Origin: Alphaproteobacteria bacterium
GTDB taxonomy: Bacteria; Pseudomonadota; Alphaproteobacteria; SP197
DNA length: 64,000 nucleotides
Direction of reading: 5' to 3'
Assembly (NCBI GenBank): GCA_964291265.2
Contig: OZ219747.1
Span: 1,280,001-1,344,000 of the forward strand
Below, piece after piece: positions 25,849 through 31,508 of the stretch (position 1 is the first letter of the stretch; each line of letters starts with the position of its first letter). Position numbers and translations under genes: made by a program. The notes below the pieces were generated by a model. The model worked only from the letters and a program-made list of their open reading frames with translations. It was not told the DNA's origin and searched no databases.

Positions 25849-26037
25849 ACGCGCGGTTTGCTGGACCAGTCAAGTCCGCGTCGTCGGCAGCCGAGAAGAC
25901 GGACGTCCGCCCACGACACTTGTTTCGGGCGTTCGACGACCAGCCGGCTGCACGCCTCCCCAGACTTGATGTTGATGGCTGCATAGAACGGCGGGATTTC
26001 GGCGATTTGCCGCGCTTTGTCAGGGTCGTGTTTCTTC

Positions 26038-26129
26038 CCTGTTGTCAGGTCCTATTGTCACGTCCTGTTGTCGTGGGTTCAGTGTTCGGTTGATTGTCTC
26101 ACCGAGCGTCGCCGTCTTTTCCTATTGTC
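26038..26129 (+). repeat. Subterminal CCTRTTGTC repeats: three at a 13-bp period plus one
   Basis: Copies at 26038, 26051, 26064 and 26121; related inverted copies near the right end at 31144-31166. Confidence 0.75.
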
Positions 26130-26400
26130 GTTTTGGTCCGGTTCGGGTTGTTCCGTCGGCCTCTGCTTCGGTCTTGGTGAGGGTTGCCGGGAGGGTTCCG
26201 GTTCCGAGGCACTCGCGGGATCGTCTGTTTTCCCTGTGGTCTGGGTCGCGTTGTCCGGTCCCGGGGCGGCGACTTTGCCGCCGCCCCGGGTGGATGCTAG
26301 ATCGGCATCGAAAGAAAGAGCGATGCGATGCCGGGCAGAGTTGTGATGACGACCCCCGGCGCAGCACCCGGACGAGCCGGTCACGGGGGACCGAACTCCC

Positions 26401-26931
26401 GTGTATTGTCGAGCCATTTTGCGTCCGGGTCCACCCCCGCTCTCGAGACGGATCGTGTGCACGACGGGACGACTGTTCAACTGCAAGCGGTGTCAGCGGC
26501 AGGTTGTTCTCTGCCGGTCGTGTGACCGGGGGCATGTGTATTGCTCCGATGAGTGCAGGGAGCGGTCCCGGATCGAGCGGCGCCGCGCGTCGCGTCGTCG
26601 CTACCAGAGCACGCTGAGGGGCCGTGAGACGGGCCGTCACCGCCAGCGGCGTTACCGGCTCCGCAAGGCGGAGGAGGCGCGTGCGTTGAAGGCCAGGGCG
26701 GCGATGCTTGCCGAGATCATGGGCACGCAGACGTCTGCTGTGGTGCTGCTTGGCGACGTTCCGGCGGTGTCTGGAGACGCCGGTTCCGAAGAAATCGTTA
26801 CGGACCACCCTTCCCGACTGCTGCCGACCTCCCTACCTGCGGTTGTGAAGGCGCAAGAGCGACGCGAATCGCCGCTTCGGTGCGCCCGTTGCGGACGGGT
26901 CGTGACGCATGTGGTGCTGAGGGACCCGTGA
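26401..26931 (+). CDS. Cys-rich, Arg-rich putative Zn-binding nucleic-acid-binding protein of the IS21 element (start uncertain)
   Basis: CKRC...CRSCDRGHVYCSDEC, a basic helix RRYQS...HRQRRYR and a C-terminal CARC. Confidence 0.75.
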   Translation: MYCRAILRPGPPPLSRRIVCTTGRLFNCKRCQRQVVLCRSCDRGHVYCSDECRERSRIERRRASRRRYQSTLRGRETGRHRQRRYRLRKAEEARALKARAAMLAEIMGTQTSAVVLLGDVPAVSGDAGSEEIVTDHPSRLLPTSLPAVVKAQERRESPLRCARCGRVVTHVVLRDP

Positions 26932-26963
26932 TGCGGCGTTGAGGAACCAGAGGGAGGGAGTTC

Positions 26964-28457
26964 ATGGCGATCGACGAGGACACGCGGGCGACGATCGTGC
27001 GGCTGTCGCGGGCCGAGGGCTGGGCTGTGGGGACGATTGCCCGGCATCTCGGCGTGCACCACGGCACGGTGACGCGGGCGCTCAAGGCGTCGGGGCAGGA
27101 GCGGCGGCCGCGGGCCAAGCTCATCGACCCCTTCGTTGCCTTCCTCGGGGAGCGTCTTGAGGCGTCGCCGGACCTTCCGGCCAGCACGCTCTGGCGACAG
27201 GTCGTGGCTCTGGGCTACCGCGGCGGCGAGGATCACTTCCGTCACGACCTGCGCCGCCTCGGGCTGAGGCCGGTGAAGAGGCCCGAGCCGTCGCTGCGGC
27301 TGAGCTTCCTTCCGGGCGAGCAGGCGCAGGTTGACTGGGCCGAGTTCGGGAAGGTCCGCATCGGCCGGGCGGAGCGCAGGCTCATGGGGCTTCTCGTCAC
27401 CCTCAGCTACTCGCGCCAGACTGTCCTGAGCCTGTTCCACGACGCGCGGATGGCCAGCTTCCTGCAAGGCCATGTCGAGGCTTTCGCGGCATTCGGGGGT
27501 GTGCCGCGGAGGCTTCTGTACGACAACCTGAAGAGTGCCGTGGTGACGCGCCGCGGCAAGGCGGTCACCTATCATCCGATGCTGCTCGGCCTCGCGGCCC
27601 ACTATGCCTTCGAACCGAGCGCCGCCTGGCCCAGGAGCCCGCAGGAGAAGGGCCGCGTGGAACGCCGTGTGCGCTTCGCGCGCACCGGGTTCTTCGCCGG
27701 GCGCGACATCACGGTCCCGCTCGGCGAGCTCAACGCCGCGGTTCGGGAGTGGTGCTTCGGCGCCGCCGCGGAGCGGCCCTGGCCGGACGACGACAGTCTC
27801 CTGGTGCGGGACGCCTTCGCCCGGGAGAGGGAGCACCTGATCGTCCTTCCCGTCGACCCCTTCCCGCATCACGAGGTCCGCCCGGTGCGCATCGACAAGA
27901 CCTGCCACGCCCGCTTCGACACCAACGACTACAGCGTTCCGGGTAGCTTCTCCAAGGCCCTGCTGACGCTGGTCGCCGACCGCGACGAGGTTCGCATCCT
28001 CGACGGCGCCGACGAGGTCGCGCGCCACCGACGCTCCTACGACAGGAAGCAGGCCGTCACCGATCCGGAGCATGCCAGGGCGATCGCCGCGGGCAAGCGG
28101 CGGGCCCGCTCCATGAGCGTCCGCGACCGGGTCCTGCGCACCGTGCCGCGGGCCGAGGAGATGCTGGCGCGCGCCGGGACCAACGGGCGCAACGTGGCCT
28201 CCTGCGCCCGGATGCTGGAGACGCTTCTCAACGCGCACGGCGCCGACGCTCTCGACCGGGCTGTCGCCACGGCGCTGGAGCGCGGCTCGTGCCACCCCGA
28301 AACCGTGCGCGTCATCATCGAGGAGCGCCGCCGGGAGCAGGGCCTGCCGCCCCTCAGCATCGCCGACGACGGCCGCGGCGGCCGTGGCACGACGCCGCGG
28401 GGGACCGCTCTCGACGCCTACGACAGGCCCGAAGCCAGCGCCAGGAACAAGACATGA
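26964..28457 (+). CDS. istA: IS21-family transposase IstA
   Basis: N-terminal HTH; DDE motifs PGEQAQVDW, LYDNLK, PQEKGRVER; C-terminal NDYSVP beta domain. Confidence 0.96.
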   Translation: MAIDEDTRATIVRLSRAEGWAVGTIARHLGVHHGTVTRALKASGQERRPRAKLIDPFVAFLGERLEASPDLPASTLWRQVVALGYRGGEDHFRHDLRRLGLRPVKRPEPSLRLSFLPGEQAQVDWAEFGKVRIGRAERRLMGLLVTLSYSRQTVLSLFHDARMASFLQGHVEAFAAFGGVPRRLLYDNLKSAVVTRRGKAVTYHPMLLGLAAHYAFEPSAAWPRSPQEKGRVERRVRFARTGFFAGRDITVPLGELNAAVREWCFGAAAERPWPDDDSLLVRDAFAREREHLIVLPVDPFPHHEVRPVRIDKTCHARFDTNDYSVPGSFSKALLTLVADRDEVRILDGADEVARHRRSYDRKQAVTDPEHARAIAAGKRRARSMSVRDRVLRTVPRAEEMLARAGTNGRNVASCARMLETLLNAHGADALDRAVATALERGSCHPETVRVIIEERRREQGLPPLSIADDGRGGRGTTPRGTALDAYDRPEASARNKT

Positions 28458-29155
28458 GCGAGCTCAGGGAGCGTGCCCGGGCGCTCGGCCTCCACGGGCT
28501 CGTCGAACGCTGGGACGAGGTCGCCGGGACCGCATGGATCGAGGAGGTGGTCAGCGGCGAGGAACAGGCCCGCAGGGCCCGCAGCCACGAGCGCCGCCGC
28601 GCCGCGGCGCGGCTGCCCGCCTTCAAGCCCCTGGCGGACTTCGACTGGACATGGCCGCGCGACATCAGCCGGGCTCATGTCGAAGCGCTCCTCGGCCTCG
28701 GCTTCGTCGACCGTGCGGACAACGCCGTGCTCGTCGGCGGGCAGGGCACCGGAAAGACCATGATCGCCGCCAACGTGGCGCACCAGGCCCTGCTGCACGG
28801 CCACACCGTCCGCTTCGAGAAGGCGCCGGAACTGCTCGAGGCACTCGCCGAGACCGTCTCGCGCAGCGAGCTGCGCCGCCGCCTCGCGATCCTCGCCAGG
28901 CCCCGCCTGCTCGTCCTCGACGAAATCGGCTACGTGACCCTCGAAAGCCACCATGCCGACATCCTCTACGCCATCGTCTCGCGGCGCTATCAGCGCCGCT
29001 CGACCATGGTCACGACAAGCCTCGCCTTCGCCCAGTGGGACCGCGTCTTCCCCAGCGCCTCCGGCATCGCCGGCACCGTCGACCGGCTCATGCACGACGC
29101 AACCCTCATCTCCATCGACAGCGACTCCTGGCGGCTCAGGCGTGAAACCCGATAA
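28454..29155 (+). CDS. istB: IS21 helper AAA+ ATPase IstB
   Basis: DFDW, Walker A GGQGTGKT, Walker B LLVLDEIGY, RY, DRLMH, SWR; ATGA overlap with istA. Confidence 0.95.
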   Translation: MSELRERARALGLHGLVERWDEVAGTAWIEEVVSGEEQARRARSHERRRAAARLPAFKPLADFDWTWPRDISRAHVEALLGLGFVDRADNAVLVGGQGTGKTMIAANVAHQALLHGHTVRFEKAPELLEALAETVSRSELRRRLAILARPRLLVLDEIGYVTLESHHADILYAIVSRRYQRRSTMVTTSLAFAQWDRVFPSASGIAGTVDRLMHDATLISIDSDSWRLRRETR

Positions 29156-30035
29156 ACCCCGCCGCGTCGACTTCGACGCCGTCAAGCGCATGCCGTTCGA
29201 ACGCATCGCCGCCGACTGGGGATACGTCCGCGACGAACAGGCCTCGACACGCGCCAACCCCGTCCTGTGCGCACCCGGCCTGCCGAAGCTCGTCACGAAG
29301 TGCCTCAACAACGGACACTGGGTCTACTTCAACACCCAGAACGATGAAGACAACGGAACCGTCATCGACTTCATGCTCAACCGCGGACTGGCCTTCGCCG
29401 ACATCTGCACCCGCTTCGCAGCACCCGACGCCGCGCCACGCGACTTCCGCAGCCTCTGGGCCGCGGCAACGCCCGATGCGGCCCCGGACTGGCTCACCGG
29501 GCGCGGCATCCTCCCGGAGACCCTCGACACCTGCCGCCCCCTGGTCCGCCGCGACCACAACGGACGCGTCCTCTTCGCCCATCGCAACAGGAAGCGAAAG
29601 CTCACCGGCTTCGAGATCGGTCCCCCCGACGGACCGAAACGCTTCGCCACCGGTGGAACCCGAAGCCTGTTCGCCGTCCGCGCCGGAACCGCCGCGGACC
29701 TCGAGGCCCTCGTCATCACCGAAAGCGCCGTCGACGCCCTCAGCCTGGCCCAGATCGACCAATGTCCCCCCAGCCACGCCTTCCTCTCCACCGCCGGGGC
29801 ACCCTCGCGAAGACAGCACGAACAGATCAGCCTCGCCGCAAGCAGCCTGCCCAACGTCAGGACCATCGTCCTCGCCCAGGACCACGACGAGGCCGGAGAG
29901 CGACAGGCCGAAACCCTGCGCAAAAAGATGAAGCTCCCCTCCCACGTCTCGTTCCACAGACGCAGACCGCCGGAAAACGCCGACTGGAACGACGTCGTCA
30001 ACGCCAGGACCAAAGAACCACAAGCGAGATCATGA
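29142..30035 (+). CDS. Toprim-domain primase-like protein (DUF3991+Toprim architecture)
   Basis: DNGTVIDF, WLTGRGI, GFE, ITESAVDALS (Toprim E), AQDHDEAG (DxD), DWND; the GTG start overlaps the istB stop. Confidence 0.85.
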   Translation: MKPDKPRRVDFDAVKRMPFERIAADWGYVRDEQASTRANPVLCAPGLPKLVTKCLNNGHWVYFNTQNDEDNGTVIDFMLNRGLAFADICTRFAAPDAAPRDFRSLWAAATPDAAPDWLTGRGILPETLDTCRPLVRRDHNGRVLFAHRNRKRKLTGFEIGPPDGPKRFATGGTRSLFAVRAGTAADLEALVITESAVDALSLAQIDQCPPSHAFLSTAGAPSRRQHEQISLAASSLPNVRTIVLAQDHDEAGERQAETLRKKMKLPSHVSFHRRRPPENADWNDVVNARTKEPQARS

Positions 30036-30061
30036 CCACGTCCGTCACAAGGAGACCACTC

Positions 30062-30352
30062 ATGCCCCTCACGCCCGCCGAAAAGCAGCGGCGATACCGG
30101 GAACGGCGCAAGGCCGGCATCCCTCCCGTCCACACCCCAAAGCATCGTGACCGGCGCTCGCGACCGCAACGCTGGAACGACGCCGTGGCCGAACTGCGCG
30201 CCCTGCAGGACGAATGGCGTGACCGCCTCGACAGCATCCCCGAAAGCCTCCGTGACACGCCTTACGGAGAACGCCTGCAGAGCGTCGCCGATGCCGACAT
30301 CGAGGCCCTCGAGGACATCGAACCGCCACGCGGCTACGGAAGGGATACGTGA
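30062..30352 (+). CDS. Small hypothetical protein (LTPAEKQRRYR ... PPRGYGRD)
   Basis: RBS AGGAG at about 30050; alternative ATG at 30032 overlapping the primase stop; basic N-terminus followed by a helical acidic domain. Confidence 0.75.
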   Translation: MPLTPAEKQRRYRERRKAGIPPVHTPKHRDRRSRPQRWNDAVAELRALQDEWRDRLDSIPESLRDTPYGERLQSVADADIEALEDIEPPRGYGRDT

Positions 30353-30912
30353 TCCCGCAAGACCCTTGAACGCGGTCACGCGTTACCATCCAGGAATGAG
30401 AACGTCTCACCCCGACGCGCTTCTCAGCCTCCCCGGGGAAACCCCCGGGCCGTCCAAACGACACCGCATCACGAGACTGCCGCAGCCGCTGGCCGGACTG
30501 GCTTACAGGTCGCAGCATCCGCCCGAAAACACTCGACGCCTGCCGCACCCTGCAGGACGAATGGCGTGACCGCCTCGACAGCATCCCCGAAAGCCTCCGT
30601 GACACGCCTTACGGAGAACGCCTGCAGAGCGTCGCCGATGCCGACATCGAGGCCCTCGAGGACATCGAACCGCCACGCGGCTACGGAAGGGATACGTGAT
30701 CCCGCAAGACCCTTGAACGCGGTCACGCGTTACCATCCAGGAATGAGAACGTCTCACCCCGACGCGCCTCTCAGCCTCCCCGGGAAACACCCGGGCCGTC
30801 CAAACGACACCGCATCACGAGACTGCCGCAGCCGCTGAGCCGCAGCAACGCCCGATCCGCCGCCGGACTGGCTCACAGGTCGCAGCATCCGCCCGAAAAC
30901 ACTCGACGCCTG
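30201..30912 (+). repeat. Near-identical tandem duplication of about 350 bp
   Basis: CCCTGCAGGACGAATGG... starts at both 30201 and 30548; junction microhomology GC(G/A)CCCTGC; the first copy lacks about 20 nt present in the second. Confidence 0.92.
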
Positions 30913-31140
30913 CCGCACCCTGCGCCGCCGCAACCGCAACGCACGCAGCCTCTTCGCCCAGCGCAACAGAAACCGTCAGCTCTCCAGCCTCGAGATCGTC
31001 CCGCCCGACGAACCACGACGAGGACGGAGAACGCCAGAACGAAACCACGCGCAAAAGCCTGAAGCTCCCCTCCCACATCACGTTCCACAAACGCCGAACG
31101 CCAGAAAACGCCGACCGGAACGACATCGTCAACGTCAATG
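30812..31140 (+). pseudogene. Diverged, internally deleted copy of the primase gene
   Basis: Aligns to about 29433-29635 and then jumps to about 29881-30005 via the shared (G/A)ACC sequence; contains a TGG>TGA nonsense change. Confidence 0.85.
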
Positions 31141-31508
31141 CAAGACCAATGGGATCCAACAATAGGCAGAAAACAAAGACCGGGCGGACCTTCGTCCAAT
31201 GCCGCACGTTCTCCTGTCGTGGTCACCCACTCACACGATCAGCGCCCAAAAGAGCGGTTCTCCGCCAATATCCCGCCGTTCTAAATCGCCGCCGACAGAC
31301 TTGATCCACACCGCGGATCTTCGGCCAGCCCGCGACGTTCAGTCCGGCAAATGCCTGCGTGGGTAGACAGGGTCGGCAACGATCCCGTCTACTCGGCACT
31401 GGGGGCAACGCGCCTGTCGACTGCAAGTCCGTTCGAACATGTGTGAGCCACGCTGTCGATGGGACTGCTGCCGGGAGGCAGTTCCCGCTGCACTGACATC
31501 CGCACAGG

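Follow-up and report, generated by a model that had tools for sequence, protein, structure and literature searches.

An IS21-family transposable element with a predicted primase gene behind istB in an alphaproteobacterial genome

The transposable element described here lies in a 64,000-nucleotide stretch of DNA (the window; positions 1,280,001 to 1,344,000 of the forward strand of contig OZ219747.1, assembly GCA_964291265.2) from a member of the Alphaproteobacteria. It spans window positions 25970-31297 (5,328 bp) and is inserted between convergent host genes encoding a proline-racemase-family protein and hydantoinase B. On the forward strand it carries a cysteine-rich open reading frame (ORF), the transposition genes istA and istB, a gene for a DUF3991/Toprim_2 primase-like protein (hereafter Toprim) and a small ORF. 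All five had been named in an earlier interpretation of the bare DNA (the sequence-only reading), and all five are present. Judged by its genes and ends, the element is a member of the IS21 family, a variant that has domesticated a primase-like gene.

The first ORF (26401..26931, forward strand, start uncertain) is zinc-finger-like in its cysteine content and has no Pfam or NCBIfam match. The next gene, istA (26964..28457, forward strand), encodes an IS21-type DDE transposase of 497 amino acids that scores 222 bits against NF033546 (cut-off 160). Its catalytic triad, D124/D187/E233, is present at the motif positions given in the accessible text of PMC11208146. The helper ATPase of the AAA+ class encoded by istB (28454..29155, forward strand, 233 amino acids) matches PF01695 with an E value of 3.6e-50 and 171 bits, over the cut-off of 24, and scores 191 bits against NF038214, 9 under the cut-off of 200. 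Its Walker A and Walker B motifs occupy residues 95-102 and 153-157. The Toprim gene (29142..30035, forward strand, 297 amino acids) matches PF13155 (E 3e-13) and, weakly, PF13154. With its IstA, adjacent IstB, imperfect TG...CA repeats and short target duplication, the element has the features that define the IS21 family, in which target duplications measure 4-8 bp.

The sequence-only reading had also described the genes as overlapping, and this holds in part. The genes istA and istB overlap by 4 nucleotides, and in the database gene call Toprim starts at GTG 29142, giving a 14-nucleotide overlap with istB (P0001). The second overlap is not a universal one, as Toprim starts beyond the istB stop codon in two other genomes (G424 and G004). 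The possible overlap of Toprim with the small ORF is probably incidental, because the latter most likely starts at ATG 30062, after AGGAG, as in its homologues. No relaxase, type IV secretion system (T4SS) or tyrosine/serine integrase gene was found inside the element ends, and no initiator, helicase or polymerase among the element ORFs. Searches of the element for sigma-70 promoter-like sites and Rfam families gave no match, terminator-like sites numbered 2 against 3.1 expected, and a protein Atlas search returned only unnamed clusters for the cysteine-rich and small ORFs.

The boundaries of the element are well defined. From 25963 to 31304 the window reads GACTTGA, TGTTGATGG ... CGCCGACA, GACTTGA, with the element ends TGTT...GACA. 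The left terminal inverted repeat (25970..26018, forward strand) pairs with the right one (31249..31297, reverse strand) at 34 of 49 positions, and the perfect 7-bp duplications occupy 25963..25969 and 31298..31304. The ends and the target duplication had thus been read correctly, as an empty allele confirms. In two (X2 and X3) of three public sequencing runs from one study, contigs join position 25960 to 31296 and skip 5,335 bases (5,328 + 7), leaving a single GACTTGA, while the third run (X1) has the filled site. Because the empty site in two runs has only one GACTTGA, the 7-bp duplication is proven.

Pairing of 48 left-end and 40 right-end matches within the genome that bears the window (G000) yielded 32 full-length copies of 4,971-5,347 bp, of which 27 carry their own duplication of 5-7 bp (5 bp in 22, 6 bp in four and 7 bp in one). 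Seven bases is therefore a rare length, for which the window copy is the sole case. Five copies have none at their own ends; two of these (C2:4152391 and C2:4253167) are parts of nested structures with matching outer ends. The copies represent 24 distinct sequences, and a second copy shares the sequence of the one in the window but has a different duplication. The empty site, together with copies whose duplications differ, identifies the element as a true, polymorphic and recent insertion and rules out chance repeats or an assembly artefact. In total, the elements occupy 3.5% of this genome. In run X1, summed contig depth reached about 1,600-2,700 along the greater part of the element, compared with 54-59 in the flanks; although this depth is not a copy number, the assembly holds 36-37 Toprim copies, near the ratio of element to flank depth in that run. 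No RNA run was among the listed holders of the element. Insertions of the element into itself were observed in four clusters (G000:C2 296-309 kb, 4058-4075 kb, 4145-4152 kb and 4237-4258 kb), and these nested copies suggest that target immunity is weak or lacking.

Toprim is tightly linked to the transposition genes. A genome scan for Toprim confirmed 238 stretches, of which the best 80 were retained. They comprise 76 loci, 67 of them in the close clade, which represent many copies in fewer than 20 assemblies and are not independent events. Toprim abuts istB in all 61 close-clade loci with an intact N-terminus, and the remaining six of the 67 are N-terminally truncated fragments. Within the window's own genome, Toprim is intact in 31 of the 32 copies, and the cysteine-rich ORF, istA and istB are each intact in all 32. 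A search that started from IstA gave the same result, with Toprim accompanying 5/5, 4/4, 28/28 and 5/5 IstA matches in genomes G422, G423, G424 and G426, respectively. Among these 42 Toprim genes, one is frameshifted and one is split off by a nested insertion sequence (IS).

Ratios of nonsynonymous to synonymous substitution (dN/dS) were obtained pairwise by a simple counting method on GC-rich, partly saturated sequences. They were 0.33-0.57 for Toprim against the window copy and 0.21-0.41 for close pairs, similar to istA (0.31-0.72 and 0.27-0.37) and istB (0.23-0.60 and 0.11-0.37). For the cysteine-rich ORF the ratio was 0.5-0.7, counted without L056, L074 and L075, whose alignments overran the natural start or stop. 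The same kind of overrun accounts for the apparent breaks of Toprim in L035 and L066. Of 10 Toprim-less loci, 9 also have the cysteine-rich ORF ahead of istA. In the copies, it has 90 variable columns per kb, compared with 13 for istA, and 28 amino-acid variants, yet it is never broken. With Toprim whole in all but one of the 32 copies, linked to 42 of 42 IstA matches and constrained like istA and istB, the comparisons support the view that it belongs stably to the element and is kept by selection, and is not one-off cargo. The sequence-only reading had regarded the gene as a functional part of the element; its stability and selection agree with that view, and a role in priming replicative transposition can be put forward only conditionally, as discussed below.

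Elements of this kind have a patchy distribution. Eight other lineages contain multi-copy Toprim-bearing IS21 elements of 4.0-4.7 kb with related terminal repeats and duplications of 5-7 bp; for G424, automatic delimitation recovered the two ends together in just 3 of 19 loci. Among 22 other genomes of the genus, five have an IstA match and three the full arrangement with an intact close Toprim homologue; G012 contains an IstA fragment, and G015 a 47% identical IstA in a genome where no Toprim was found. Other close homologues occur in the Paracoccaceae and in one Acidimicrobiales bin. A class-wide search of 400 other genomes (E <= 1e-70, three candidates scored per genome) recovered IstA matches in two, where no Toprim lies within the extent of the short contigs. 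When the two phylogenies are compared, the IstA and Toprim trees contain the same starred groups. A single clade of Toprim-bearing IstA and IstB is not rejected by the approximately unbiased (AU) test (p-AU 0.43), and the trees neither show nor reject that IstB and Toprim became linked only once.

The Toprim protein is predicted to be a DNA primase. A profile of 51 sequences matched T7 gp4 alone in the PDB (E 1.2e-8). The structure model, with a mean predicted local distance difference test (pLDDT) score of 91, was matched by Foldseek to Twinkle, T7 gp4 and DnaG. In VIA-align, residues 96-290 superimposed on the T7 primase 1nui_B with Z 15.6 and a root-mean-square deviation (rmsd) of 3.3 over 178 aligned residues; primase cores ranked first, ahead of topoisomerases, and Aquifex DnaG scored Z 13.5. 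The model thus indicates that the catalytic region has a DnaG/T7-type primase core fold with the Toprim glutamate and DxD motif. The acidic residues E194, D198, D247, D249 and D281 are present and align with those of T7 gp4. All 36 close homologues retain E194, D247 and D249, and 35 of them D281. Residues 1-95 form a domain that resembles a primase zinc-binding domain (ZBD) but is free of zinc ligands; when it was folded alone, its four best VIA-align matches were primase ZBDs (Z 6.4, 5.5, 4.6 and 4.1), and Foldseek returned nothing at E <= 0.001. The protein therefore shares with T7 gp4 and DnaG a ZBD-like domain and a catalytic core, while it differs from them in having no zinc-binding Cys/His set and no helicase or helicase-binding domain.

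The closest relatives of this clade point to an origin outside insertion sequences. The nearest outside Toprims, with 35-37% identity, come from Myxococcota bins and metagenome contigs, where genes for TrbG-like, TrbI and tyrosine-integrase proteins recur as neighbors. None of 89 sister-clade loci has an adjacent istB, and only one has any trace of istB, at a distance. Based on these neighborhoods, it is likely that the primase gene was captured from an integrative conjugative element (ICE). Plasmid relatives are DUF3991-Toprim genes, some of them inside MobV relaxases; conjugative plasmids account for most of the records (297 of 449), and the accessible part of PMC13055273 reports one that is co-induced with tra genes. 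These plasmid and ICE contexts, which would be settings of single-strand transfer, are taken here as evidence of origin.

The position behind istB is occupied differently in more distant relatives. At 42-47% IstA identity, 10 of 10 distinct IS21 loci have no Toprim after istB (three of the contigs end within about 510 bases). In nine of these ten, a small ORF follows istB, and in five its product has an acidic P-x-F tail. We take this tail to resemble the C-terminus of the single-stranded DNA-binding protein (SSB), which recruits restart proteins. ORFs of 61-73 amino acids annotated as hypothetical and coupled to istB (L213-L219, L191 and L194), several with an acidic P-x-F tail, were also seen in Rhizobium, Mesorhizobium, Aromatoleum, Burkholderia and Methylotuvimicrobium plasmids, all from cultured organisms.

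A further property of the element is a steep gradient in synonymous composition. The frequency of G+T at fourfold-degenerate sites declines along the element from 0.64 to 0.38 to 0.22 (p 1e-23). The controls were 486 single-copy host ORFs and 12 other IS ORFs of the same genome. Toprim, at 0.18, falls under all 486 host ORFs (minimum 0.31), and the drop of 0.25 within istA is equalled by one of them. The gradient occurs in all nine lineages of Toprim-bearing IS21 and in both elements of a second transposon family described below, whereas ICE-borne Toprims have a host-like skew. Each strand of the element is rich in G and T toward its own 5' end, as expected if deamination, which acts on single-stranded DNA, hits strands displaced from either end. 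This mirror-image skew would fit replication that enters from either end. Among the control IS ORFs, a significant gradient was present in five (IS66, ISLre2-like, Transposase_29, DruA-ISAs1-like and one Tn5-like) and not in seven (five IS4/Tn5-like, IS110 and part of a second IS66). The pattern favours a replicative route but says nothing direct about the primase. Skew also varies by IS family within this one genome (L220-L237), being strong in IS66 and ISLre2-like ORFs and flat in most IS4/Tn5-like ones, and the mirror skew may serve as a sign of a replicative route that can be read from DNA sequence.

On these grounds, we consider it a little better than an even chance that Toprim acts in cis as a catalytic primase on the displaced strand at the copy-out step. 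IstA would nick one end of the element and join it to the other, forming a figure-eight. The free 3'-OH of the flank would prime host synthesis into the element and one strand would be displaced, on which the element primase would place a primer, yielding a double-stranded circle. IstA and IstB would then insert the circle with a duplication of 5-7 bp. If the reaction can start from either end, each strand would be exposed longest near its own 5' end. The position behind istB would represent a slot for replication helpers, and the tiny protein with the acidic P-x-F tail in primase-less relatives would recruit host restart proteins instead. The host possesses intact dnaG and priA, which rules out the lack of either as a driver; therefore the gain would be in efficiency or in independence from host-specific restart, and not a rescue.

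Several observations weigh against this mechanism. The same dnaG and priA leave no obvious need for an element primase. Most of the IS21 relatives whose IstA is 42-47% identical carry no Toprim, and in the best IstA and IstB trees two Toprim-bearing loci (L090/L091) group with the Toprim-less L200, outside the main clade with Toprim. Half of the loci that lack Toprim have no acidic tail either. Neither is the skew gradient specific to Toprim, since it occurs in 5 of 12 control IS ORFs and in some Toprim-less IS21s. No end-to-end junction of the kind expected of a circle was found in the genome assembly or among the listed contig joints, although contigs drop rare forms. In the protein itself, the best match of the N-terminal domain, to 1d0q, reaches only Z 6.4 (rmsd 3.8, 85 aligned), and 40 aligned N-domains have no conserved Cys set and a single invariant His. 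D198 is aspartate in 20 of 36 close homologues and asparagine in 16. Finally, human Twinkle, a non-priming relative, is high in the structure rankings of the model.

Some of these points would suit a mainly non-catalytic helper that binds or protects the displaced strand or branched intermediate and passes it to host replication. The absent zinc ligands, the D198N replacement and the non-enzymatic nature of the small acidic-tailed counterpart in the slot are consistent with such a role, but the retention of E194, D247, D249 and, with one exception, D281 across homologues of 50-80% identity argues for catalysis, and we regard the helper as unlikely. Toprim might instead be a passenger that is kept for the host or for co-resident conjugative elements and has no part in transposition. 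Its descent from an ICE/plasmid family is in line with this, as are the mobility of close IS21 relatives that have no Toprim and the demonstrable gain of hitch-hikers such as the small ORF by this element. Nevertheless, the fixed position in 61 of 61 loci, a dN/dS equal to that of the transposition genes, the congruent trees and an independent acquisition by an unrelated transposase family are not what a passenger would be expected to show. Furthermore, 36 identical copies of the primase gene bring no evident benefit to a host whose dnaG is intact, and the idea seems improbable.

Two other roles would place the primase outside the copy-out step. After horizontal entry, it could supply the second strand of an element that arrives single-stranded, by conjugation or uptake, in a foreign host where the element is unable to recruit the restart proteins. 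The relatives fused to MobV relaxases or located in T4SS regions would accord with this, and so would the patchy distribution (3 of 22 congeners, the Paracoccaceae and one Acidimicrobiales bin). The element itself carries no relaxase or transfer gene, however, and Toprim has stayed intact in 31 of 32 copies that were made inside one genome, which renders this role quite improbable. Least probable of all is that the excised circle is an autonomous mini-plasmid in which IstB serves as the DnaC-like loader and Toprim as the primase. Weak IstB scores with DnaC/DnaI models, the high copy number and the centring of the mirror skew on the end junction would favour it; against these stand the ordinary IS21 character of IstB, the chromosomal location of the copies with their duplications and the missing helicase, Rep and polymerase genes. 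The sequence-only reading had called the element self-replicating. As a description of a free replicon this could not be upheld, with neither helicase nor initiator in the element and no junction in the genome or contigs, where the expected joints had been sought.

If Toprim does prime the displaced strand in cis, the element could be an example of a broader class of self-priming DDE transposons. In such a class, at least two unrelated transposase families would have domesticated ICE or plasmid primases in a swappable helper slot, otherwise filled by an SSB-tail-like recruiter or a helicase-primase pair, and so control the copy step that all studied ISs borrow from their host. We rate this generalization as a tentative one, slightly less probable than not.

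Comparison with known systems sets the element apart in several respects. It agrees with the IS21 family, as far as the consulted portions of PMC11208146 and PMC10122671 describe it, in the D124/D187/E233 numbering, the overlapping istB, the TG...CA ends and the duplications of 5-7 bp. It differs in having four conserved genes in 4.0-5.3 kb, with the cysteine-rich ORF upstream and a selected primase-like gene downstream, and in its nested copies, which make target immunity look weak. In the literature searched, no description of an IS21 element with a primase was found, although ISfinder, TnCentral and supplementary element tables could list such elements. Formation of IS911 circles needs DnaG. 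The copy-out/paste-in elements IS911 and ISCth4 would share with this element, by analogy, the proposed figure-eight and a circle made by replication; as excerpted, PMC7780238 has host replication turn the figure-eight into a circle and assigns the copy step to host replication and repair, while here a primase is predicted to be encoded by the element. IS21 is among the circle-forming families listed in the part of 10.1101/2023.06.07.543989 available to us. The same excerpt describes the insertion sequence excision enhancer (IEE), likewise primase-related and proposed to act at the copy-out step. IEE, however, is an archaeo-eukaryotic primase (AEP) PrimPol-helicase whose gene lies outside the IS and which works in trans and favours IS loss, in contrast to the Toprim fold found here inside the IS. 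The ICE and plasmid DUF3991/Toprim_2 proteins, including the MobV-linked ones, belong to the same family and have the same fold, with 35-37% identity between the present Toprim and the ICE-borne clade of the Myxococcota, but the gene here lies inside IS ends without relaxase, T4SS or integrase. The literature found does not establish a biochemical role for the DUF3991/Toprim family, and priming by Toprim, if true, would be its first function. It might also explain bursts to about 30 copies, as in this genome and in G424 (28 IstA matches). The handover of a branched IS intermediate to replication and the source of the second-strand primer are poorly resolved, and, in the sources as consulted, the in vivo route of IS21 is thinly documented. 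An element-encoded primase would make second-strand priming accessible by point mutants, and the slot variants (primase, small acidic-tailed protein, and helicase plus primase) form a ready comparative series.

The small ORF (30062..30352, forward strand, 96 amino acids, basic/acidic) had been counted as part of one mobile unit of five genes. It is found in only two of nine element lineages, and three identical copies at scattered sites have it in null form, which rules out a five-gene operon. In the window's genome it is intact in 28 of 32 copies and broken in four. Since identical copies bearing a stop in this ORF sit at separate sites, it is a dispensable hitch-hiker. A 78% identical copy lies behind an IS110 transposase in the same genome, and a 71% copy behind a Toprim-less IS21 in G005. 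Outside the window the ORF was located at L235, L032:11409-11705 and G000:C2:3295623-3295862; altogether its companions are IS110, two kinds of IS21 and a large serine-recombinase-like ORF. Decayed internal duplications extend over 30197..31137 (forward strand, no Rfam match). The segment 30197-30553 is duplicated at 30544-30923 (92%), and pieces of Toprim recur, 29426-29635 at 30805-31014 (81%) and 29865-30006 at 30995-31137 (83%). Thus 30353-31137, which the sequence-only reading left undescribed, is made up of degraded second copies of the small ORF and of Toprim fragments.

The second transposon family with a Toprim gene comprises an ORF, a DDE transposase, an ExeA-type AAA_22 ATPase, an optional AAA_25 helicase (in G000 only) and DUF3991/Toprim. 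G000 contains about six copies of 5.16 kb, for example C2:47062-52222 (L236), with short target duplications. In G005 the element measures 4.0 kb (L028:2346-6350); this genome has 15 Toprim matches, and five copies were examined. The Toprim of this family is homologous to that of the IS21 element (29% identity) and occupies the same position, and, from the sequence comparison, the unrelated DDE and ExeA-type family appears to have acquired it independently, a case of convergence. Tn6049 of Cupriavidus metallidurans, a multi-copy transposon with a GspA/ExeA ATPase, resembles this family by description only; in the consulted parts of PMC2864759 and PMC4739549 it is a 3.5-kb element outside IS21 for which no primase is mentioned.

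Other sequences were noted in addition to these elements. One G000 copy of the second family is interrupted by the IS21 element (C2:2284347-2289672), and at L209 (G009:C2:254815-259125) the Toprim of an IS21 copy runs into an ExeA-type ATPase fragment, a recombinant of the two element types. Three multi-copy transposases of G000 (L224, C2:3982457-3984888; L226, C2:2238556-2240903; L237, C2:2532061-2534154) carry a Druantia DruA domain at the N-terminus, fused to DDE domains of the Tn5-like or ISAs1-like type. Additionally, a 3.8-kb stretch with fibronectin type III repeats (L230, G000:C2:3489807-3493611) is repeated in about five copies.

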